Part shown: positions 8,338 to 58,116 of the stretch, in pieces
Numbering within the stretch: the stretch's first letter is position 1
How the letters are laid out: the number at the start of each line of letters is the position of its first letter
Source: Gammaproteobacteria bacterium
Lineage (GTDB): Bacteria; Pseudomonadota; Gammaproteobacteria; JACCXJ01
Direction of reading: 5' to 3'
Assembly (NCBI GenBank): GCA_050740435.1
Contig: JBOIDL010000001.1
Span: forward strand, 5,484-69,483
DNA length: 64,000 nt
Notes under the pieces: generated by a model
What the model saw: the letters and a program-made list of their open reading frames with translations, nothing else
Databases searched by the model: none
Told to the model about the DNA's origin: nothing
Program-made: the position numbers and the translations under genes

Positions 8338-9162
8338 ATGGCCAAAACAGCCAACCAACCTAACGATCCGATCCATCTGGACGGCGCAGTCTGGATGAAA
8401 GTTGGTGACGAAAACCTAGGTGGCCGTGGTCGCGTGGGTTTGCTGCGCGCCATAGTCGAAAAAGGCTCGATCACCCAGGCGGCTAAGGCGATTGGCATGA
8501 GCTACAAGGCCGCCTGGGATGCGGTCGACACGATGAACAATCTGGCGGGTGAGCCGTTGGTTGAACGAAGCAGCGGCGGCCGAGGGGGAGGCTGGACGCA
8601 ATTGACACCACGAGGCCTTCAACTAATCGAGCGTTTCGACCAGATCGAAGCGGTCCATCGACGGTTCGTGAAACTGCTGAGCAATGAAGCCATCGATCTC
8701 ACGTCCGACCTTAATCTGCTGCGAACCTTGAATATGAAAAGCAGTGCCCGAAACCAGTTTTCCGGAGTCGTCACTGCCGTGAAGAGCGGTGCGGTCAACG
8801 ACGAAATCCAACTTACAGTGGGGAAGAACACTCGGATCGTGGCCGTTGTGACCCGAGAAAGCACGGAGTCGCTCGGAGTGAGAATCGGCAGCCAAGCGTT
8901 TGCACTAATCAAGGCATCTTCCATCATCATCGCCAGCGATTTTGATGGAGCCAAGCTTTCCGCCCGCAACCAACTCTATGGAACTGTTGCTTCTGTGATT
9001 CCCGGAGCGGTCAACGCGGAGGTGGTCTTAGAGATTGATGGCGGCGGGAGCATCGCAGCGATTGTGACCAATCCAAGTGTTCGGTCGCTTGGGCTTGAAG
9101 CCGGTAAACGGGCGGTTGCGATCTTCAAAGCATCCAGCGTCATTCTCGGAACGATGGCGTGA
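8338..9162 (+). CDS. modE: Molybdate-responsive transcriptional regulator ModE (N-terminal HTH plus two Mop/TOBE domains)
   Basis: N-terminal ModE-type HTH (…GSITQAAKAIGMSYKAAWDAVDTMNNL…) followed by two Mop repeats (…NQFSGVVTAV…, …NQLYGTVASV…). Start moved to the ATG at 8338 (MAKTANQ), which has an RBS. Confidence 0.8.
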   Translation: MAKTANQPNDPIHLDGAVWMKVGDENLGGRGRVGLLRAIVEKGSITQAAKAIGMSYKAAWDAVDTMNNLAGEPLVERSSGGRGGGWTQLTPRGLQLIERFDQIEAVHRRFVKLLSNEAIDLTSDLNLLRTLNMKSSARNQFSGVVTAVKSGAVNDEIQLTVGKNTRIVAVVTRESTESLGVRIGSQAFALIKASSIIIASDFDGAKLSARNQLYGTVASVIPGAVNAEVVLEIDGGGSIAAIVTNPSVRSLGLEAGKRAVAIFKASSVILGTMA

Positions 9163-11252: not shown

Positions 11253-12001
11253 TCAGCCTCCGTCAAAGCGTTTCGGCGGCCCGGCCCTGCCTCTGCCTCC
11301 TACCAGTTCTCCCCAAAACGGTCTTGCTTCTATTTCGAAGGACCAGGCTGAGCGCTTTTGCCGTGTAAGCATGAAGGCGGTGTCGGCCAGTTCCTCGGGC
11401 TTGACGAAGAACTCGGCAGGCTTGTCAGGCATGCGCTCGCGGGTCTCGGGCAGATCGACTACACCATCGATGATGACTAGCGCCACATGGATGCCGAGCA
11501 GCCACAGATGACGAGCCATGGCTTCGGCAAGGCTGCGCTGAGCCGCCTTGGCCGGGGCGAATGCCGCCGTCTTGGCGCCGCCGCGGCGCGAGGCGGTGGC
11601 ACCGATGAAGAGGATCTTGCCCCCTCCCTTTTGTTTCATAGCCGGGATCACCTGTTGTGCCGCGATCAGCGCCCCCAGCGCATTGACCCGCCAGGACATA
11701 TCGAAATCATCAACGCTGATGTCCTCGACGGTACCCCAGGTGCCGAGCCGGCGTTGTAGATGAGCGCATCCACATCACCCAAATCCTGTCGGATACTGGC
11801 GACGGCGCGCTCCACCGAAGCTCGATCCGTGACATCGCATGCATAGGCGCGGGCATCGCCAATCTCGGCGGCGAGGTTACCGGTAAACTCGGTGGTGCGC
11901 GCGAGCAGCGCCACCGTGTAGCCTCCAGCGGCAAAGCGCCGGGCGAGCGGCGCACCGTTACCGGGACCGACCCCAATCACCGCGCAGATAGGTTTCGTCA
12001 T
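11253..12001 (-). pseudogene. Short-chain dehydrogenase/reductase disrupted by a frameshift (or sequencing error) near 11690-11760
   Basis: ORF 11666..12001 encodes the SDR N-terminus (ICAVIGVGPGNGAPLARRFAAGGYTV…DALIYNAGSA) and ORF 11253..11699 encodes the contiguous C-terminus (…VNALGALIAAQQVIPAMK…ATASRRGGAKTAAFAPAKAA…) in another frame. Confidence 0.6.
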
Positions 12002-12366: not shown

Positions 12367-12987
12367 GTGCTTCGTATCGAGGTCATTGTCCACAACACCC
12401 AAGCCCTTCGCTGCGGGCGGCCTCTAGAGCGCTTCCCGCAGATCGTCTTGCGGCTTCACCAGATCTTGGAGCAGTTCCTCGGCAACGTGTACTGCATGGA
12501 TGCGGCGTTCATCAGCGACGAGACGCTGAATCAGCTTCCCAACCCCTCTCGGGTCGGCAGGACCCGGCTCGGTGGCATCGATATCAATAAGCCGATAACC
12601 CGCCTCGTGCTGCGTGCGGTCCTCGCCTTGGCCTGTGCGCCCGATGGGTTTGCCGCAGGCCAATTGGCGCAGGCCGTATCCATGTTGGGGGCAACCCCCT
12701 CTACCTACGACACGCGTCGGGCCGCTTACGACCTCAAGAAGCTCCGCGGCAAAGACCTGGTGAGCAGGCGTGATAACTCTCGCCGATACTCCCTTACCCC
12801 GCAAGCCATCCGCACAATGGCGGCACTGGTAATCCTGCGAGAGAAAGTCCTACGCCCGATTCTGGCCGGTGTGGGCAAACCCCGGATGGGTCGCAAGCCG
12901 AAGACCTGGAGTCCCATCGACGAACACTATGAAGCCATTCGTCAAGACATGTTCACGCTCATGGAAGACCTGCGGATCGCCGCGTAG
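12367..12987 (+). CDS. Hypothetical protein, possibly a fragment of a larger (mobile-element-like?) gene; no assignable family
   Basis: 206-aa ORF with no convincing RBS; the N-terminus reads like an internal segment; sits in a patch of decayed genes. Confidence 0.25.
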   Translation: MLRIEVIVHNTQALRCGRPLERFPQIVLRLHQILEQFLGNVYCMDAAFISDETLNQLPNPSRVGRTRLGGIDINKPITRLVLRAVLALACAPDGFAAGQLAQAVSMLGATPSTYDTRRAAYDLKKLRGKDLVSRRDNSRRYSLTPQAIRTMAALVILREKVLRPILAGVGKPRMGRKPKTWSPIDEHYEAIRQDMFTLMEDLRIAA

Positions 12988-13029
12988 ATATCCACAACAT
13001 TTTGTCGATGTTACTTTTGTAAGCGCCTA

Positions 13030-13209
13030 ATGCAGGCCTATCGCGGCAGTGGTCTGCCGTTGGAACGCGCAATACTCGACCTGCATAGCGGTCGTATCGT
13101 GGGCCAATGGGGCATCTATGTGGTCGACGGCGCGGCGTTGCTGTTCTTGGCGCTGGTGATCACGGGGTTGTGGATGTGGGCCAAGCAGAGAAACAACGAC
13201 CTACGGTAG
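13030..13209 (+). pseudogene. C-terminal fragment (about 59 aa) of a PepSY-associated TM-helix (PiuB-like) protein gene
   Basis: Translation …ERAILDLHSGRIVGQWGIYVVDGAALLFLALVITGLWMWAKQRNN* matches the conserved LHxG…hydrophobic-helix…basic C-terminus of PepSY-TM proteins; no upstream body is present. Confidence 0.4.
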
Positions 13210-13911
13210 ACGACCCGCTGCAATCATTCGATTCTTCAGGATATGGGGTGAAATCCATACGACAAGGTCGTCAAATTCGCTGCCCGGATTTTGGCTGTAG
13301 CCTCTGGAAACAAAATCGATGTCATGTGGCGGCCGGTTCTCGGTTTCGTCTGCGGAGGTTAGGGCCAGATTTCCATTGGCTCCGTAGGAGACAACGATAG
13401 CCGGAATATTGGCTCCCACATTGCAGCCAACCGCATCGGTACTGCCTTTAACACAGATGGTACCGACCGAACACAACGCTATGGAGGTCGTCGGAGACGT
13501 CGAAATGCACCCCCCGCTGTTATTTTCGTCATTGTCGGCGAAATCGCCGGTTACTGCGTATGCGAACGGCTCGCCCCATGCGTCCGTCCCAGAAACTCCA
13601 AGGTCTGCTGATGGAAGGATGGATTTAGGGCTGGTAGAGGCCAAATTACCGGCAACTCCAACACACGCTTCGCCAGGCCCAGGATTTTGGGGATCTCCGT
13701 GACCATCATCATCGGTGTCCGGACATGGAAGTCGTCCGTTCGCCGCAGCGAAACCGTAAAGCGCCTCTTTGATATCATCGAGCAACTCTTGTGTTTTTTG
13801 CCGGTCTGCCTGTTCGATTCTTACCGATAACGGCCCGAGTAAACTACCCAGTAACAGTGCGATCACGACTACGGCGATCGCAACTTCGATCAGCGTAAAA
13901 CCGCGTTCCAT
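13201..13911 (-). CDS. Type IV pilin-like protein (prepilin N-terminal cleavage/methylation domain; MshO-like minor pilin)
   Basis: Starts MERG|FTLIEVAIAVVVIALLLG, a class III signal with G at -1 and the conserved TLIE motif; 236 aa, Cys-containing C-terminal region. Confidence 0.7.
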   Translation of the reverse strand: MERGFTLIEVAIAVVVIALLLGSLLGPLSVRIEQADRQKTQELLDDIKEALYGFAAANGRLPCPDTDDDGHGDPQNPGPGEACVGVAGNLASTSPKSILPSADLGVSGTDAWGEPFAYAVTGDFADNDENNSGGCISTSPTTSIALCSVGTICVKGSTDAVGCNVGANIPAIVVSYGANGNLALTSADETENRPPHDIDFVSRGYSQNPGSEFDDLVVWISPHILKNRMIAAGRLP

Positions 13912-13971
13912 ACGGCTCTGGTAGTGTCATCGGCTACTCCAGCAATGTGGATGCGGTAGGTAATCATGCCT

Positions 13972-15441
13972 TTATAGGCAACTCCCGTTAGTGCATACGA
14001 CGTCGTTAAACGTGGCGGTGGCGTTAACCGCTGTGAACGAATCGTCCATCGTCGGAGGGAGCGGCGTAGCATTATCATTTTCCAAGTAATTACTAACATT
14101 GCCCTTGTCAACAGCGGGATCGGTCCTAGGCTGGTCAACTGCTACGCCCGCGAGTCGTTTGCCCGCTGCGATAACGATGGTTTGTCTATTAGTGAGCGGA
14201 GCAAAGGGAGGCGGCCGATTAACGGTAAGGCAAGTGCTGGACGCGCAACTAGGTGGTGCAGAGCTAGTAGGCTTGTATGCGTCGGCCACTCCGTAAAAAA
14301 TTAACTCTTTCCAGTTAAGCCACCAATTGGTGCCCGCATCGACATTACAAGTGGTAGGCCAAGAACCGGTCATACCAGCGCTTTCGGTATCGTCAAGTTG
14401 TTCTGGTACGCGCCCGAAACGCGTATCGGTGGTGTCGTCGTAGTTCGGCGACGCCCCCCCTATCGGCACGGCCCACGGAGAGCGGCCTGAATTCGCGGGA
14501 TCCACAGCGTAATCTCTAAGGCACGTGAGCACTTCCGCCACGACTCGCTTTTCCAATAATGGCATTAGATCCTGATATGCTATCGGAAGCAATCTATCGT
14601 TAACAATCGCGTTACCGCTGCCATCAAAGACCTCGCCTTGGATAAATCCATTTGTCCTGCTTGAAATTGTATTTCCATCATAAAAGTTACCATTATCCTC
14701 CGTGAGCGTTGCATCAAGGTAGTTTTGCGGATCGCACCTCGGTGTCATAAATGGGAAAGGCGTGGTACAAACATCGCTTCCAGTCCGATCCTGATCGGTA
14801 CCAGATCCCCGCCTCAACACTGTTCCGGGTGCGAATAGGACGGCTATCGCACCGTTCCGCGCTAACGGATCTGAGTTGCTCGCGTCATATATCACAGTAT
14901 CGTTAGCGGTTCGGACGGTGATCCTTCCCTGTGCATCGCTGTTTAGACATCCAGATGAATCAGCATCAGGGTCGCTGGGATTGCAATTATACCGAGTGTT
15001 ATTTTTGAAATTTACTGAGATTGCGTACCACAAGCGTTCGCCGGCCCCATCGCGCAAATCTTGCAGTCCGAGTGTCTTCCAAGGCAAGCGCCCTAACCGT
15101 GTCCAGGAATCCGTTGCGACAGGGGGATAAGGCCCACAGGCTGATTCAGCAAAACCGTCGTTATTTCGATCAGGACAAGGCAAATCGCCGGGCCGCACAC
15201 AATCAATATCTGTTTGGTCTATGCAAGCGGGATTTAATAGTCCACTTACCGCATATCCAATTAAAGCCGCTTTCGCCTCCGCCAACGCACTCGCCGTCTG
15301 CGCGTCGCGGTAGGATTGAGTCGCCGCCGCGTTTAGCCCTCTAAGCAAAACAAATGCAGCCCCGGTTACAAGAATAAGGAGGAATGCGACGAGGGCAAAG
15401 CCGGAATGTTTTTTAATAGTGCGTCTTGCAAAACCGTTCAC
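13972..15441 (-). CDS. Pilus assembly protein with PilX-N-like N-terminus (MshP/PilX-like), large secreted/periplasmic domain
   Basis: 489 aa; N-terminal …KHSGFALVAFLLILVTGAAFVLL… (PilX_N-like hydrophobic segment) followed by a Gly/Asp/Thr-rich beta-type region. Confidence 0.45.
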   Translation of the reverse strand: MNGFARRTIKKHSGFALVAFLLILVTGAAFVLLRGLNAAATQSYRDAQTASALAEAKAALIGYAVSGLLNPACIDQTDIDCVRPGDLPCPDRNNDGFAESACGPYPPVATDSWTRLGRLPWKTLGLQDLRDGAGERLWYAISVNFKNNTRYNCNPSDPDADSSGCLNSDAQGRITVRTANDTVIYDASNSDPLARNGAIAVLFAPGTVLRRGSGTDQDRTGSDVCTTPFPFMTPRCDPQNYLDATLTEDNGNFYDGNTISSRTNGFIQGEVFDGSGNAIVNDRLLPIAYQDLMPLLEKRVVAEVLTCLRDYAVDPANSGRSPWAVPIGGASPNYDDTTDTRFGRVPEQLDDTESAGMTGSWPTTCNVDAGTNWWLNWKELIFYGVADAYKPTSSAPPSCASSTCLTVNRPPPFAPLTNRQTIVIAAGKRLAGVAVDQPRTDPAVDKGNVSNYLENDNATPLPPTMDDSFTAVNATATFNDVVCTNGSCL

Positions 15442-15455
15442 AATACCGATCCCAT

Positions 15456-15715
15456 CATGCCAGCGAAAGCTGGCATGCAGTCGTTATTAAAAACGCCCGG
15501 ATTCCAGCTCGCGCTGGAATGACAATGTGGCGATGGCCCCGCATCCACATAGGCTTCAATGTCATCATTCGTTTGAAACCGCGCGCCAGTTGTACCGCGA
15601 ACGGGCATAATTTTCCTAAGCATGGATATGACCCCCATATCACCGTCACCCCGGCGGACGCCGGGGTCCAGTGCGGCGCATGAAGGCTCGCCTGGATGCC
15701 GGTTTTCACCGGCAT
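15456..15715. repeat. Cluster of related short hairpins (REP-like) in a 410-bp intra-operon spacer of the pilus cluster
   Basis: CATGCCAGC-gaaa-GCTGGCATG (15456-15477), ATTCCAGC-tcgc-GCTGGAAT (15501-15520), CCCCGGCG-ga-CGCCGGGG (15649-15666), ATGCCGGT-tttc-ACCGGCAT (15696-15715). The first and last are reverse-orientation versions of one another with compensatory AGC/GCT to GGT/ACC changes. Confidence 0.45.
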
Positions 15716-15851
15716 GACGGAGGACAAAACGTAGATTATGACCGTTGCCTGTATACACAAGCCTGGACATGCGTATTGACCGATCTCGCTAACGTCTTGG
15801 TAGACGACCCGTCCTTAGTACCGGCGGTGGCCCGCGGAAAGCCCGCTCTAT

Positions 15852-16364
15852 CTACCGGGGCGACCCCGATGCCGGCGATGCGCTATCCGATGCCGCCTCG
15901 GCGTCGTTTGTCTCTTGATACAAATCAACCACGCGCGAAGCGGTCGGGTCGAACGTTTGACCGGGTTTCAAGCCAACTCCCACGGGAGAGTTCTGGACGC
16001 GAACCGGCACGGTTTGGCCGCGGATGCCTCGGACGTTAACATCGACCTGCTGCGATCCAAGGTCGCCCGTTAACGAATTGGTGCCGTTGATCCAAACGGT
16101 ATTGTCCCCGCGAGACCGCGATACGAAGCCGTCTACTCTGACACTTTGAACCGGGGGCGGCTCCGGTGCGAGGGCTTCAGGCTCCAGTGGCTCGGCCGGC
16201 GCTTCAGGGCTTGGGGGCTGATTCCGCAAGGCTTCGAGCCTCTGCCGCTCTTTCGGTGTCGTGAATAGGCGGCCGAGATCATCCGCGCGAATGCCGGGGC
16301 TCAGGAGCCCGAGCCCGACTAATGCAATGATTGTTTTCATGGCACGCCTCTTTTGCTTACCCAC
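15852..16364 (-). CDS. Secreted Pro/Ala-rich protein with signal peptide (MshK/PilP-like small pilus-biogenesis component, tentative)
   Basis: 170 aa, cleavable signal peptide (MKTIIALVGLGLLSPGIRA), proline-rich linker, beta-rich C-terminus; position within the msh-like operon. Confidence 0.4.
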   Translation of the reverse strand: MGKQKRRAMKTIIALVGLGLLSPGIRADDLGRLFTTPKERQRLEALRNQPPSPEAPAEPLEPEALAPEPPPVQSVRVDGFVSRSRGDNTVWINGTNSLTGDLGSQQVDVNVRGIRGQTVPVRVQNSPVGVGLKPGQTFDPTASRVVDLYQETNDAEAASDSASPASGSPR

Positions 16365-16406
16365 ACTTTACAAAAATTATCGCATTCAATGTAGGATGGG
16401 TTAGCG

Positions 16407-16523
16407 GCGTTGTTTGCGGCGTAACCCACCAACCTGACAAGCGTAGCTTGTCTCCTGACGCCTTTGCGGTATAACGAGTCGGCGTCCCGCCGACAGGATG
16501 GTGGGTTACGCCGCAAACAACGC
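16407..16523 (-). ncRNA. Structured RNA element in the 5' leader of the 15852..16364 gene: 24-bp perfect long-range stem enclosing nested hairpins
   Basis: Arms CGTTGTTTGCGGCGTAACCCACC (16408-16430) and its exact reverse complement (16500-16522) enclose GTCGGCG-gga-CGCCGAC and GACAAGC-tac-GCTTGTC hairpins. An AT-rich promoter-like stretch (16540-16640) lies upstream in the direction of transcription. Confidence 0.35.
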
Positions 16524-16656
16524 GGCTCTCAAGAAACACATTTTAAGTGATTGATTTTAAGTATATAACAAATTGATGTGTTTCTTTGTAAACGCCTTCC
16601 GTCACGGGCGGTTATTCAGCTAACCCGCCCTACATTTTGATACATTTTGCTAAGTT

Positions 16657-17277: not shown

Positions 17278-18856
17278 CTTCGGCTCCGAAAACGACCCGC
17301 AACGAGAACGCCGCTTTCTCGGGTATATTTAGGTCCTTGGTATCACCGCGCATTTGGCCGCTCGAGCGAGTATCGAGCGGGAGGTTCGCAGCCGTGACCG
17401 AATGGGCTTGGTACTTCGACCGCAACACGTCGCCGAAGCGGTTGATCTGATCTAAAGCGGCCCGGTAATTCCCGTCGAAGGGATAGACATTGGCGGTGAT
17501 CTCCGCGATTTCATAGTAACTGGGCGTTTGACCCGTGCGTGGAACGGGTGGCGCCTGCGGGGCGGCGGCGCCCGCGCTCGCTTGCGGGTCGGTGCTCACC
17601 GTCCACTGGATTTCTTCCAGCCGCAGGGTGGGGAAACCAGCGAGCGCCTGCCCGAGGACCCCCATCCGGCCGAGCGGCGCCGCTTTGTGTTGAGTAAGCG
17701 TATCGACGATGTCCACGGCGGCCTTGATATCGGCGGGGCTGACCGCGGTGGGAGGCAGCCGTCCTTTTTCCTTATCGTAGCGAGCTTGATAGAACGTGGC
17801 TTTTTGTGCCGCATCCCGAGCCAGTTGCCTGACCGACACGGCTTCTATCAGGTTGAACCAGCTCCACAGAGCGCTGCCGAGCAAGGCGATGACGCTCGCC
17901 GCATACAGACCGGCGCGGGTTTGGTGCAGCGTATAGTAACGGCGTTCTTCATTCGAGGCGAAATGGTTCTTCGGTTGGGTGCGCAGCAAGAGGTGCACGA
18001 AGATATGATCGCTAAACGGAGTGGTGAGCACTCCGTGGATCCCGAGACGCCTGGCGACATCGGCGACGTCCAGCAAGTGATAACGTACCGTTTCCGTGTT
18101 GCGGCACGCTTGCTCCAACTGGTCCAATGATTCGCCATGCGCGAGGATATAGGTATCGAGCGGCTCGCCTTTTAGGAGCTGCACGCTGGTGAGGTAGCGC
18201 TCGAACTTCCCCAGCTCCCCGAGGATATACGGGGCGAAGGGCACCGTGCCAAGCCTGGGCAGCTTGGCGAGCCGGCTCATCTTGAGTATCCGGTCGTTGA
18301 AAAAGGACTGCCGCAGCCCGCTCGACCCCTGCATGGTTACGAGCAGCACATGCCGAGACGGGACCTTCATCTTAGCGAGAAGTGACGCGCTTAGAATCGG
18401 CAAGGAGTAGATGCCCGCCAACGCAACCTTGTTTTGGGTGCAAAGCCGGACCCAGGGGATCACGATGTCCGGGTTGACGATGGCGGTGAACATAAGCTTG
18501 TCGTCGCGGCGGCCCTCCGCTTCACGCCCTTGCATCATGACGTGGCAATAAGGGGTGCCGCGGAAGAACCAGGCCTGCTTGCGCTCGATGACCGCTTGAC
18601 GGTCGGACCCGTAGAGATGCGGTATGTTTTCGTGACGGTATTCTTCTTCGACGACGTCGACCATCAGATAAATGGGAACCTTTGGCGTTTCCCTCAGATA
18701 GCGTTCAAAATTGGCCAGCCCGACATCATCGACATCAAACACGAAGGCGTCGGCAATGCCGCCCTTATCCCACTGATAGACCGACACGCCATCGGAGGCG
18801 ATGCAGAGGGCGCGCCGGCGCGCGGAGCTAAAACTTGATCTTAGTGATGAGATCAT
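17264..18856 (-). CDS. MshI-like protein (PilM-like actin-fold N-domain fused to PilN-like TM/periplasmic segment)
   Basis: 530 aa; central TM (LYAASVIALLGSALWSWFNLI) separates a cytoplasmic about 330-aa domain from a periplasmic coiled-coil domain; position and architecture as in msh/pil operons. Confidence 0.5.
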   Translation of the reverse strand: MISSLRSSFSSARRRALCIASDGVSVYQWDKGGIADAFVFDVDDVGLANFERYLRETPKVPIYLMVDVVEEEYRHENIPHLYGSDRQAVIERKQAWFFRGTPYCHVMMQGREAEGRRDDKLMFTAIVNPDIVIPWVRLCTQNKVALAGIYSLPILSASLLAKMKVPSRHVLLVTMQGSSGLRQSFFNDRILKMSRLAKLPRLGTVPFAPYILGELGKFERYLTSVQLLKGEPLDTYILAHGESLDQLEQACRNTETVRYHLLDVADVARRLGIHGVLTTPFSDHIFVHLLLRTQPKNHFASNEERRYYTLHQTRAGLYAASVIALLGSALWSWFNLIEAVSVRQLARDAAQKATFYQARYDKEKGRLPPTAVSPADIKAAVDIVDTLTQHKAAPLGRMGVLGQALAGFPTLRLEEIQWTVSTDPQASAGAAAPQAPPVPRTGQTPSYYEIAEITANVYPFDGNYRAALDQINRFGDVLRSKYQAHSVTAANLPLDTRSSGQMRGDTKDLNIPEKAAFSLRVVFGAEDANG

Positions 18857-20030
18857 AGATCGGGCCCAGTACCGATAAGGCCACCCAGCCTAAAAGCACT
18901 CCGAGCACCAGGGTCATCGCCGGTTGTATGACGGTCTGCAGGCGCTCGATCGACTCGCGTACGTCGCGCGTGTAAAAATAGCTTACGTTTTGCAACGCGG
19001 TCTCGAGCCCCCCGGTGTTCTCGCCCACCCGGAGCATCCGCAATACCAAGGCAGGAAACAAGCCGGTGGCCGCAAAACTGTTGCTTAGGCCGGCGCCGTC
19101 GCTGATGTGACGGGCGGCGCTCCGCAGCGCCTCTTCGATGGCTTTGTTGCCGGCGATCTCCTCGGCCACTTTCAAACACTCCAACACCGTTATCCCAGCA
19201 GCATACATGAGGGCAAAGTAACTGGCTATACGCGTCAGTATAAGTTTCTTGATGATCTGCCCGAATAACGGGATGCGCAGCACGGCGGCATCGAAGGCGA
19301 CATGAAACGCCGGGCTGCGCTTAATCCCGATCAGGATAAGGCTGATGATTAAGACAGGTACTGATACGAATACATACCAAAACTCGACCACGGCATTGGA
19401 GGTGAAGATCAGCACCCGCGTGTGCAGCGGCAGCTCCTGTCCCATTGTCTGAACGAATTTTAGCAGCTCGGGGACGACCAGAATCATCAAAAATACTAAA
19501 GCCGCCAGCGTGATCACGGCGACAAACGCCGGGTACATGAAAAGGCGCTTGGTATAGGCCGCTTGTTCGTCCTGCCACTTCAGGTTTTCGATAACGTTTC
19601 TTAGCACCTGGGTGATCTGGCCCGTGGTCTCGCCGGCTTTGATGAGATTGACGAACACCGCACTAAACACATAGGGAAAATCCCGCATGGCTTCCGAGAG
19701 ATTCTTGCCGCCTTGTATGGACTCGATCATGGCCGAGGTGATTTCCTGGAACCGCCGGTGATCGAGCGTATCGCGCAAATCCGTCAATGCATCGAGCATC
19801 GGCACCCCCGCCTCCAGGAGTTGTTCGAGGTGGAGGCAGAAGGTAATCAAGTCCTTGCGCTTGATACCCGCGCCCGCCGACAAACGAGTCGCTTGAACCT
19901 CCTTGCAATTAACCAGCTCCAATCCGAGGCGGCCGAGGCGCACTTCCAGATCGACCGGGTTGAGCGCATCAAGCTGCCCCTTGATGATGCGGCCGCCGGT
20001 GTCGACGGCTTTATATTGGAACAGATCCAC
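18828..20030 (-). CDS. Type II secretion/type IV pilus platform protein (GspF/PilC/MshG family)
   Basis: 400 aa; duplicated T2SSF domains with the characteristic conserved segments (…GLFPALVLRMLRVGENTGGLETAL…), 3 TM helices. Confidence 0.85.
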   Translation of the reverse strand: MDLFQYKAVDTGGRIIKGQLDALNPVDLEVRLGRLGLELVNCKEVQATRLSAGAGIKRKDLITFCLHLEQLLEAGVPMLDALTDLRDTLDHRRFQEITSAMIESIQGGKNLSEAMRDFPYVFSAVFVNLIKAGETTGQITQVLRNVIENLKWQDEQAAYTKRLFMYPAFVAVITLAALVFLMILVVPELLKFVQTMGQELPLHTRVLIFTSNAVVEFWYVFVSVPVLIISLILIGIKRSPAFHVAFDAAVLRIPLFGQIIKKLILTRIASYFALMYAAGITVLECLKVAEEIAGNKAIEEALRSAARHISDGAGLSNSFAATGLFPALVLRMLRVGENTGGLETALQNVSYFYTRDVRESIERLQTVIQPAMTLVLGVLLGWVALSVLGPIYDLITKIKF

Positions 20031-27468: not shown

Positions 27469-27611
27469 GGGAAGCTTACAAAAGTCACTGCGCAGCCCAT
27501 CTGCTTTGTCGCGTGCTCGCTCGTCGCTCGCCTATCTACCTGATATGTCTCGCGACTCGCTCCGCGGCTTCGCGCATCTGGGCTTGCTCGCGACACTTTT
27601 GCAGAGCTTCC
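27469..27611 (-). mobile_element. MITE-like element family A, full copy (about 143 bp) with imperfect terminal inverted repeats GGGAAGCTTACAAAAGT … ACTTTTGCAGAGCTTCC
   Basis: Its ends are inverted repeats of each other, and its core is the reverse complement of 951-1023. It is flanked by TTA on both sides (27466-68 and 27612-14), and the right TTA is the gltA stop codon (TAA, minus strand). Confidence 0.5.

Positions 27612-58031: not shown

Positions 58032-58116
<85 letters not shown>

Follow-up and report, generated by a model that had tools for sequence, protein, structure and literature searches.

The closest described counterparts of the repeats reported here come from Neisseria. The NTS (Neisseria Transformation Sequence), a sequence of 28 nt (CGTCATTCCCGCGMAVGCGGGAATCYRG), contains the classical dRS3 unit ATTCCC-N8-GGGAAT, and diverged versions of it, the Ssn-related motifs (SRM), are found across Pseudomonadati and beyond (Chenal et al., Nat Commun 2025, PMC11893778; our statements on this system follow portions of that paper). 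As described in those portions, SsnA is a GIY-YIG protein of 94 amino acids that binds the hairpin as single-stranded DNA only, cuts a few nucleotides upstream of it and is inactive on RNA and on double-stranded DNA (PMC11893778). The GTC before the palindrome governs cleavage, the C after it is the key binding base, and a palindrome changed in sequence with its structure kept abolishes SsnA activity; SsnA and the NTS modulate transformation in Neisseria (PMC11893778). In Neisseria, genes for diverged surface proteins have dRS3/NIME arrays at their sides, pilS is embedded in such arrays, and the end points of recombination have been mapped to them; NIMEs are stated to be absent from other genera (Bentley et al. 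2007, PMC1797815). The neisserial sequence ATTCCCGCGCAGGCGGGAATC has, in addition, been treated as a REPIN with a Group 2 RAYT (Bertels and Rainey, bioRxiv 10.1101/2021.07.10.451892).

Here, we compare with these systems an array of four hairpins in an uncultured soil gammaproteobacterium, found in a window of 64 kb (the whole stretch of DNA that was analysed). The array occupies an intra-operon spacer of 410 bp, delimited from the ORF map and the sequence (15442-15851; the operon sense is the minus strand). A gene for a protein of 170 amino acids lies upstream (15852-16364, minus strand) and a pilin-like gene for a protein of 489 amino acids lies downstream (13972-15441, minus strand, with a GTG start at 15441), and the same operon includes a GspF/PilC-like gene (18828-20030, minus strand) and an N_methyl pseudopilin gene (13201-13911, minus strand). 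Neither of the two proteins flanking the spacer has a match in a Pfam and NCBIfam scan; only the hydrophobic prepilin-like N-terminus of the 489-aa product, which the earlier note called PilX-like, and its operon context suggest that it may be a minor pseudopilin. Two ORFs run through the spacer itself. One, of 110 amino acids, crosses the repeats (15438-15770, minus strand) and ends in ...CMPAFAGMMGSVL; on Logan contig L001, it is nevertheless predicted by a gene caller. The other is on the plus strand (15426-15683), and no Pfam or NCBIfam match was found for either. The 110-aa ORF is most likely spurious, since it spans a mobile element (described below) that is missing from relatives and since it has no Pfam or NCBIfam match.

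The earlier note on this DNA, made from its letters, had described a 410-bp gap with at least four strong hairpins of 8-9 bp, and four perfect hairpins of that size are indeed located there: h1, CATGCCAGC-gaaa-GCTGGCATG (15456-15477); h2, ATTCCAGC-tcgc-GCTGGAAT (15501-15520); h3, ACCCCGGC-ggac-GCCGGGGT (15648-15667); and h4, ATGCCGGT-tttc-ACCGGCAT (15696-15715). When hairpins with stems of at least 8 bp and loops of 3-6 nt are counted against first-order Markov shuffles, about 0.02 are expected in a spacer of 410 bp, as against the four observed, and the 64-kb window as a whole contains 11 distinct hairpins, as against a mean of 5.15 per 64 kb in the shuffles. Four hairpins within 260 bp are thus far beyond chance. 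Each is stable when folded singly as RNA (-13.8 to -19.5 kcal/mol; h1 reaches -16.8 kcal/mol as RNA and -11.2 kcal/mol as DNA), and the spacer folds better than its shuffled versions (z = -3.1), a score that reflects the palindromes.

The resemblance among the four copies extends beyond their stems. With flanks included, the units are CCATCATGCCAGCgaaaGCTGGCATGCAGTCGTT for h1 (15452-15485, plus strand; NTS-like, degenerate), TTGTCATTCCAGCgcgaGCTGGAATCCGGGCGTT for h2 (15492-15525, minus strand), CCGTCACCCCGGCggacGCCGGGGTCCAGTGCGG for h3 (15643-15676, plus strand) and CCGTCATGCCGGTgaaaACCGGCATCCAGGCGAG for h4 (15687-15720, minus strand), the last three likewise NTS-like. Once turned so that their flanks agree, all four copies share one layout, (C)GTCAY followed by a stem of 8 bp, a GNNN loop, the returning stem and RT-C-CAG, the 3' flank after the returning stem being C-CAG(G)CG in the oriented alignment. 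All 32 stem cells of the four copies are paired, and both sides change in four of the eight pairs; when the partner columns are slid by one to three positions, pairing falls to 16-38%. Several observations of the earlier note hold up in this alignment. The two hairpins that it took for one element in opposite orientation, h1 (plus) and h4 (minus), align over 32 nt, non-palindromic flanks included, at 78% identity; the AGC/GCT to GGT/ACC changes are compensatory, as it had stated; and the third hairpin that it recognised by a CCAGC...GCTGG core is h2. A covariance model built from the window's four copies scores h1 at 45.5 bits, h3 at 42.4 bits and h4 at 47.6 bits. No further copies occur in the 64-kb window by blastn-short, by a degenerate pattern or by the covariance model run with its filters off (nothing else above about 15 bits), so that copy number in this genome may be low, and blastn of the spacer against a plasmid collection returned no match.

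From h1 to h4, the orientations alternate (+, -, +, -), so that the array consists of two convergent doublets. Doublet 1 (h1 plus, h2 minus; 15450-15528, assigned to neither strand) has a start offset of 40 nt, is REPIN-like and can fold as one long hairpin (-35.2 kcal/mol as RNA); it forms an imperfect inverted repeat (15455-15488 and 15489-15522) with arms of 34 nt that are 76% complementary, and 14 nt separate its h1 side from the GTG start codon (15441). Doublet 2 (h3 plus, h4 minus) has an offset of 44 nt and likewise forms an imperfect inverted repeat (15643-15671 and 15692-15720). As RNA, the doublets fold at -35 and -51 kcal/mol, respectively. Both are inverted pairs spaced at less than 130 bp, as REPIN pairs are defined.

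Measured against the 28-nt NTS, the four copies carry four to seven mismatches, mostly in compensated stem pairs: h2 has four, two of which make up a single compensated pair, and h1 has six. Both polarity determinants, the 5' GTC and the 3' C, are present in h2, h3 and h4, and neither is present in h1, which has ATC upstream and G after the palindrome. The published SRM regular expression is satisfied by h4 only, and h1 to h3 fail it only at compensated stem positions. In the window, the expression has one match, as against 0.5 expected in shuffles, which is barely above chance; as it is too weak at this scale, we set it aside as a detector and used a flank-anchored pattern and a covariance model instead. 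On sequence and architecture together, the hairpins belong to the NTS/SRM/dRS3 family, and the suggestion of the earlier note that they might be REP-type elements is to that extent sound: the family is one of DNA repeats scattered among genomes, and a MITE carries two of the four copies.

The dispersal of the family is evident from a scan of one genome per species with the pattern GTCATKCCRGYNNNNRCYGGMATCC, which matched at least 120 genome loci, as against an estimated 17 or so expected by chance. The taxa among the matches listed include Dyella, Rhodanobacter, Allosphingosinicella, Sphingomonas, Dehalococcoidia and deltaproteobacteria. The pattern permits 64 combinations of arms, eight of which pair, and perfect palindromes make up 143 of the 148 matches listed, as against one in eight by chance. 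Loops among these matches are mostly GNAN (GAAA, GAAG, GCAG and GCAA). At flanking positions that the pattern leaves unconstrained, the matches listed have C at -1 in 84% of cases and, after ATCC, A in 95% followed by G in 66%, so that their flank consensus, C-GTCAT...ATCC-AG, is that of the NTS. Within 99 loci from other genomes, drawn from the matches listed, the covariance model found 192 copies, of which 116 are arranged as convergent pairs whose offsets range from 27 to 133 nt and are commonly about 39-49 nt, and only four pairs are divergent; judged by this sample, the offsets of 40 and 44 nt in the window are typical for the family. Across the same 99 loci, 99.7% of stem cells are paired, and seven of the eight pairs covary, at the same positions as in the window.

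Doublet 2 lies at the centre of an element of 161 bp (15593-15753, minus strand), delimited by an alignment of eight copies and by empty sites. Its left terminal inverted repeat, which in the sense reading begins TACAGGCAACGGTCATAAT... (15733-15753, minus strand), and its right one, ...ATTATGCCCGTTCGCGGTA (15593-15613, minus strand), have sharp ends in the eight-copy alignment and inverted arms of 19-21 nt. When metagenomes were scanned with 21 nt of the left arm, seven contigs representing six unrelated JGI metagenome contexts were recovered, with 87-96% identity to the element; in these contexts, homology to the window ends exactly at the ends of the element, with no homology in the flanks. 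Copies read TA-TACAGGCAACGGTCATAAT...ATTATGCCCGTTCGCGGTA-TA. In the window, the TA on the 5' side persists (15754-15755, minus strand), and its 3' duplicate (15591-15592) is now CA.

At the orthologous site, the element is present in the window and in the relative L128 and is missing from both copies of the locus in L004 and from L126, whose empty sites carry a single TA (gtgcTAac(c/t)tgg). A further filled site, in L136, reads caggTA[element]TAgatagg and interrupts another repeat, of which the window has an uninterrupted copy with a single TA, cgggTAgatagg, at about 993-1004. Inverted ends, copies in unrelated contexts, TA flanks and empty sites with one TA together identify the 161-bp element, from its sequence, as a TA-duplicating MITE with an NTS doublet as its core, and they attest to its mobility. 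Within this MITE, h4 is identical in all eight copies, and the stem of h3 is conserved in all eight, only its loop varying. Outside the lineage, relatives were found by the doublet core only. The TA at which the MITE inserted lies between two segments of the leader that are conserved, namely an A-box downstream of the 170-aa gene (15757-15791, minus strand), which is repeated three times in L004, and a B-box (15527-15591, minus strand), which in L004, together with an h2-type hairpin, twice precedes a pilin-like cassette.

The closest homologues of the 489-aa protein share no more than 62% identity with it, yet the DNA of the contigs that bear them matches that of the window at 93-96% identity over the upstream operon. 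Their spacers differ widely. In L128, where the DNA of the pilus operon shows 93% identity, the same 410-bp spacer is present with all four hairpins; L002 and L003, contigs that begin just upstream of the doublet, retain the h2-h1 doublet immediately ahead of the start codon; in L004 and L126, h2 and h1 are decayed and h3 and h4 are missing; and L005 and L127 have an unrelated, hairpin-free spacer of 51-56 bp. The array is polymorphic for presence and absence, and the doublet h1/h2 is an older resident directly upstream of the 489-aa gene. A check for covariation across these orthologous spacers, which the earlier note had proposed along with an RNA fold, found stems that are either identical or decaying and no compensatory changes. 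The h1 and h2 stems are identical in three relatives in which the downstream gene has diverged to 48-62% identity, and this could reflect some constraint.

Further copies lie elsewhere in the lineage. In L128, an exact canonical NTS, CGTCATTCCCGCGAAAGCGGGAATCCAG, is located downstream of rpmE, and an NTS doublet is located inside an insertion of about 175 bp between bfd and a ferritin gene, an insertion absent from L002, L004, L005 and L126. With these, L128 has three separate hairpin clusters in 11.7 kb, from which it follows that the family is dispersed in the lineage and that its copies differ between close genomes.

We therefore consider it very probable that the spacer contains an array of NTS/SRM type to which a MITE contributed one doublet, and that its members are tolerated insertions in a permissive spacer rather than evolved regulators. 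As to how such units act, the comparison with Neisseria suggests that each would do so as single-stranded DNA, folding into an 8-bp hairpin to which the 5' GTC and the 3' C give polarity. A cognate GIY-YIG nuclease of the Ssn type, where one is encoded, would bind the hairpin and cut the strand a few nucleotides upstream; alternatively, an enzyme of the RAYT type could mobilise the doublets. As for the 161-bp element, its inverted ends and the duplicated TA suggest that a DDE transposase, probably of the IS630/Tc1-like class, moves it in trans. Candidates for the first two enzymes were sought among about 9,400 ORFs, comprising those of the window and of about 1 Mb of relatives' and family loci. 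Neither two motif regular expressions nor phmmer revealed a GIY-YIG or Ssn protein in this set, and phmmer with an E. coli RAYT probe revealed no RAYT, the small GIY-YIG and RAYT probes being approximate sequences. Where the elements are co-transcribed, they probably form RNA hairpins and could incidentally slow 3'-5' decay; such an incidental effect on the mRNA is possible, and nothing indicates selection for it.

A different reading would make the array functional at the DNA level, as a NIME-like array outside Neisseria that modulates recombination of the adjacent hypervariable pilin-like genes: hairpins in incoming or displaced single-stranded DNA would be cleaved by a nuclease of the Ssn type or serve a site-specific recombinase, and would so shape the limits within which the 489-aa gene and the neighbouring gene for 236 amino acids are replaced. 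Between relatives whose flanks are 93-96% identical, the identity of those two genes is no more than 63-70% for DNA and 48-62% for protein, and the array lies in this mosaic zone, at the 5' edge of the variable region. L004 carries two tandem cassettes, each preceded by the conserved leader and an h2-type hairpin, and in L002 a foreign element, whose 206-aa ORF (12367-12987) has no Pfam or NCBIfam match, abuts h2. In Neisseria, NIME arrays accompany diverged surface-protein genes and pilS (PMC1797815), and the SsnA/NTS pair bears on transformation according to portions of Chenal et al. (PMC11893778); the parallel between these arrays and that of the window is suggestive only.

Against recombination as the function of the array, the similarity breakpoints fall away from the hairpins, at about 15887 in L005 and L127 and at about 15249, inside the gene, in L128, whereas the apparent break at about 15757 in L004 and L126 is only the gap left by the MITE. 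The 3' side of the variable genes is free of hairpins, neither an Ssn gene nor a recombinase gene came to light in the sequences searched, and hairpin-free alleles are equally variable. Moreover, pilin-type genes typically vary beyond the N-terminal helix without such repeats. We accordingly regard a role in recombination as unlikely. The same doubt attaches to a more specific proposal, that an NTS array delivered in part by a MITE, together with a putative Ssn-type nuclease, tunes the replacement of pilus-tip genes in natural transformation. Improbable as this proposal appears, if it were true, the link between repeat, pilin and variable gene would be a general bacterial strategy and not the peculiarity of one genus, with MITEs acting as carriers that disseminate the target sites of nucleases.

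The earlier note had also offered a reading as RNA, proposing that the hairpins may act as transcript stabilisers or attenuators that set the stoichiometry of the downstream pilin genes. Stated fully, this reading makes them cis-regulatory RNA (a stabiliser, a processing site or an attenuator) that adjusts the ratio of the 170-aa protein to the pilin-like protein. The spacer is probably co-transcribed, the stability of each hairpin as RNA and the fold score of the spacer given above are in keeping with such a role, and h1 comes within 14 nt of the start codon; REPs in E. coli and Correia elements in Neisseria do affect mRNA decay, as a side effect. Yet among operons that are 93-96% identical, the hairpins may be present in full, present in part, decayed (L004, L126) or absent (L005, L127), and these sequences are also found in taxa and settings that are unrelated. 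Alternating orientation and conserved polarity flanks are irrelevant to an RNA hairpin and essential for a single-stranded DNA family, and compensatory changes between orthologous copies are lacking.

Nor does the spacer resemble an attenuator. A terminator and promoter scan found nothing within 15442-15851, and an intrinsic terminator or attenuator was rejected as a candidate because no GC-rich stem is directly followed by a T-run, the sole T-run, after h2, beginning 8 nt past the stem. Rfam 15 at gathering score likewise has no match in the spacer, its only match in the whole window being a tRNA-Leu (58032-58113). We consider regulation by RNA quite improbable, and the proposal on pilin stoichiometry is not sustained. 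The covariation offered as a sign of functional RNA is real as regards the pairing changes, but these separate paralogous repeat copies, not orthologous spacers. Absence from orthologous spacers and absence from all other sites had together been named in the earlier note as what would tell against it; the hairpins are indeed not consistently conserved in orthologous spacers, but they do occur elsewhere, as REP-type elements would.

A reading of the hairpins as attC-like sites of integrons, or as site-specific recombination sites of another kind that delimit cassettes, is scarcely credible: they are imperfect palindromes with structure conserved over sequence, they adjoin cassette-like variable genes and each tandem cassette of L004 has its leader copy, but the reading is disfavoured because the RYYYAAC/GTTRRRY core pair is absent from the palindrome ends, because the hairpins stand 5' and not 3' of the gene and because no integrase occurs among the neighbouring ORFs scanned, and the same hairpins are found, singly or in doublets, at ordinary intergenic sites of many taxa.

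Taking the array as insertions of an NTS/SRM-type family has several consequences. What looked like covariation is paralogous variation within a DNA repeat family and no evidence for regulatory RNA, so that a false lead is removed. The NTS/dRS3 family, including the exact consensus of Neisseria, reaches an uncultured lineage of soil gammaproteobacteria and is there again found beside hypervariable pilin-like genes. One route of spread is documented, the TA-inserting 161-bp MITE with an NTS doublet as its core, and this route is useful for cataloguing Ssn target sites and for studying the movement of REP-like repeats.

Compared with the NTS and SRM as characterised in the portions of PMC11893778 on which we draw, the repeats of the window share a length of about 28 nt, an 8-bp palindrome and a 4-nt loop with G first. 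Also shared are conserved flanks from which the unit takes its polarity, CGTCAT on the 5' side and C-CAG on the 3' side, as well as an intergenic and clustered position adjoining genes for variable envelope proteins, and the exact NTS consensus occurs in a genome whose pilus operon is 93% identical. They differ in their stems, which are ATGCCAGC, ATTCCAGC, ACCCCGGC and ATGCCGGT in the window and ATTCCCGC in the NTS; since a changed palindrome abolishes SsnA activity according to the same portions of the report, any cognate enzyme would need a different specificity. Further differences are the host (an uncultured soil gammaproteobacterium), the lack of polarity determinants in h1, the lack of an ssn gene in the sequences searched and the location of two copies inside a TA-duplicating MITE, an arrangement that those portions of PMC11893778 do not mention.

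With dRS3/NIME arrays, the window shares inverted-repeat units of 20 bp, ATTCCC-N8-GGGAAT in the NIME and ATTCCA-N8-TGGAAT in h2 (PMC1797815). Common to both, too, are spacers of 20-120 bp between units and neighbouring genes of unusually low identity between strains, pilin loci among them. The differences are that the spacer has four units, as against the long arrays of Neisseria, and that it gives no sign of recombination end points mapping to the repeats. Shared with REP and REPIN sequences are short palindromes set in inverted pairs at distances below 130 bp, each pair being able to fold into one long hairpin. The classical REP has a 5' GTAG, whereas the hairpins of the window have a 5' GTCA, and no RAYT was seen in the sequences searched.

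The MITE itself finds its nearest analogue in the Correia elements (CREE). Identity with these was rejected, as the ends of the MITE read TATACAGGCAACGGTCATAAT and not the Correia inverted repeat TATAGTGGATTAACAAAAATCAGGACAA, and there is no sequence similarity between the two. Correia elements have a TA target and a link to IS630/Tc1. The 161-bp element has in common with them the duplication of its TA target, an intergenic position, co-transcription with neighbouring genes and the ability to form a long hairpin. A size of about 160 bp and terminal inverted repeats starting TATA- are likewise shared (PMC1797815), and what sets the 161-bp element apart is its core, which is an NTS doublet.

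The two pilin-like genes at 13201–15441 (encoding proteins of 489 aa and 236 aa, the latter with an N_methyl domain) are hypervariable when the window is compared with the homologous pilus loci of relatives (contigs L002, L004, L005, L126, L127, and L128). Between contigs, these genes share 63–70% identity at the DNA level and 48–62% at the protein level, compared with 93–96% identity for the upstream operon. Similarity returns at approximately 13033–13286 in the contig comparison. To judge from the sequences, the variability of these pilus-tip proteins looks like the product of allelic replacement or diversifying selection.

Synteny with all relatives stops at 13030, at the junction of the regions 12367–13030 and 13030–13209. 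Here, a PepSY_TM gene, of which only the last 59 codons remain, borders on a foreign element that ends in ...ttttgtcgatgttacttttgtaagcgcctaa and whose 206-aa open reading frame (ORF; within 12367–13030) is without a family match. This end of the element recurs in L002 (positions 1–141), where it instead adjoins, at a distance of approximately 20 nt, h2, one of the four hairpins (h1–h4) of the spacer upstream of the 489-aa gene. The corresponding spacer of L004 contains a PepSY_TM fragment with a breakpoint identical to that of the window.

In L004 (5070–7961), that spacer is enlarged relative to the window. A gene for a MazE-type antitoxin and a small neighbouring ORF are inserted after the A-box (the conserved leader segment downstream of the 170-aa gene), followed by a second pilin-like cassette in tandem, which consists of a 29-aa N_methyl fragment and genes encoding 400 aa and 225 aa. 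This second cassette comes with a separate leader copy, and an h2-type hairpin is located 6 nt ahead of its ATG. Short-read assemblies of the pilus locus break within or close to the hairpin spacer: contig L001 stops 181 bp upstream of the 489-aa gene, and L002 and L003 both start approximately 230–240 bp upstream of it, as expected of repeated sequence.

The next spacer upstream, between the genes encoding 206 aa and 170 aa (16365–16656), contains a repeat family distinct from the h1–h4 hairpins. It comprises two GTAG-type REP-like units, GTAGGATGGGTTAGC (16391–16405, forward strand) and GTAGGGCGGGTTAGC (16619–16633, reverse strand), together with a palindrome of 125 bp, whose 34-nt arms (16403–16436 and 16494–16527) show 94% complementarity. 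The L004 spacer has a related copy, and no further repeats resembling this family are found elsewhere in the window. A third intergenic repeat family (...gagacatatcgggtagataggcaagcgacgagcgagc...) is represented in the window by two copies in opposite orientation (approximately 941–1100 and 27470–27610), and in the metagenome contig L136 the 161-bp MITE that carries h3 and h4 in the window has inserted into a copy of this family.

At 11253–12001 (reverse strand), a short-chain dehydrogenase gene appears to be divided between overlapping ORFs of 111 aa and 148 aa, which suggests a frameshift or a pseudogene.

Further copies of the Neisseria Transformation Sequence (NTS), the hairpin type to which h1–h4 belong, are present in L128. 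In the region 8573–8861, one near-canonical NTS and one variant form a doublet within an insertion of approximately 175 bp between bfd and the ferritin gene; this insertion is flanked by CTAGTGC and CTAGCAC and is missing from four relatives. At 11680–11728, another, exact NTS follows rpmE at the end of the L128 stretch compared.
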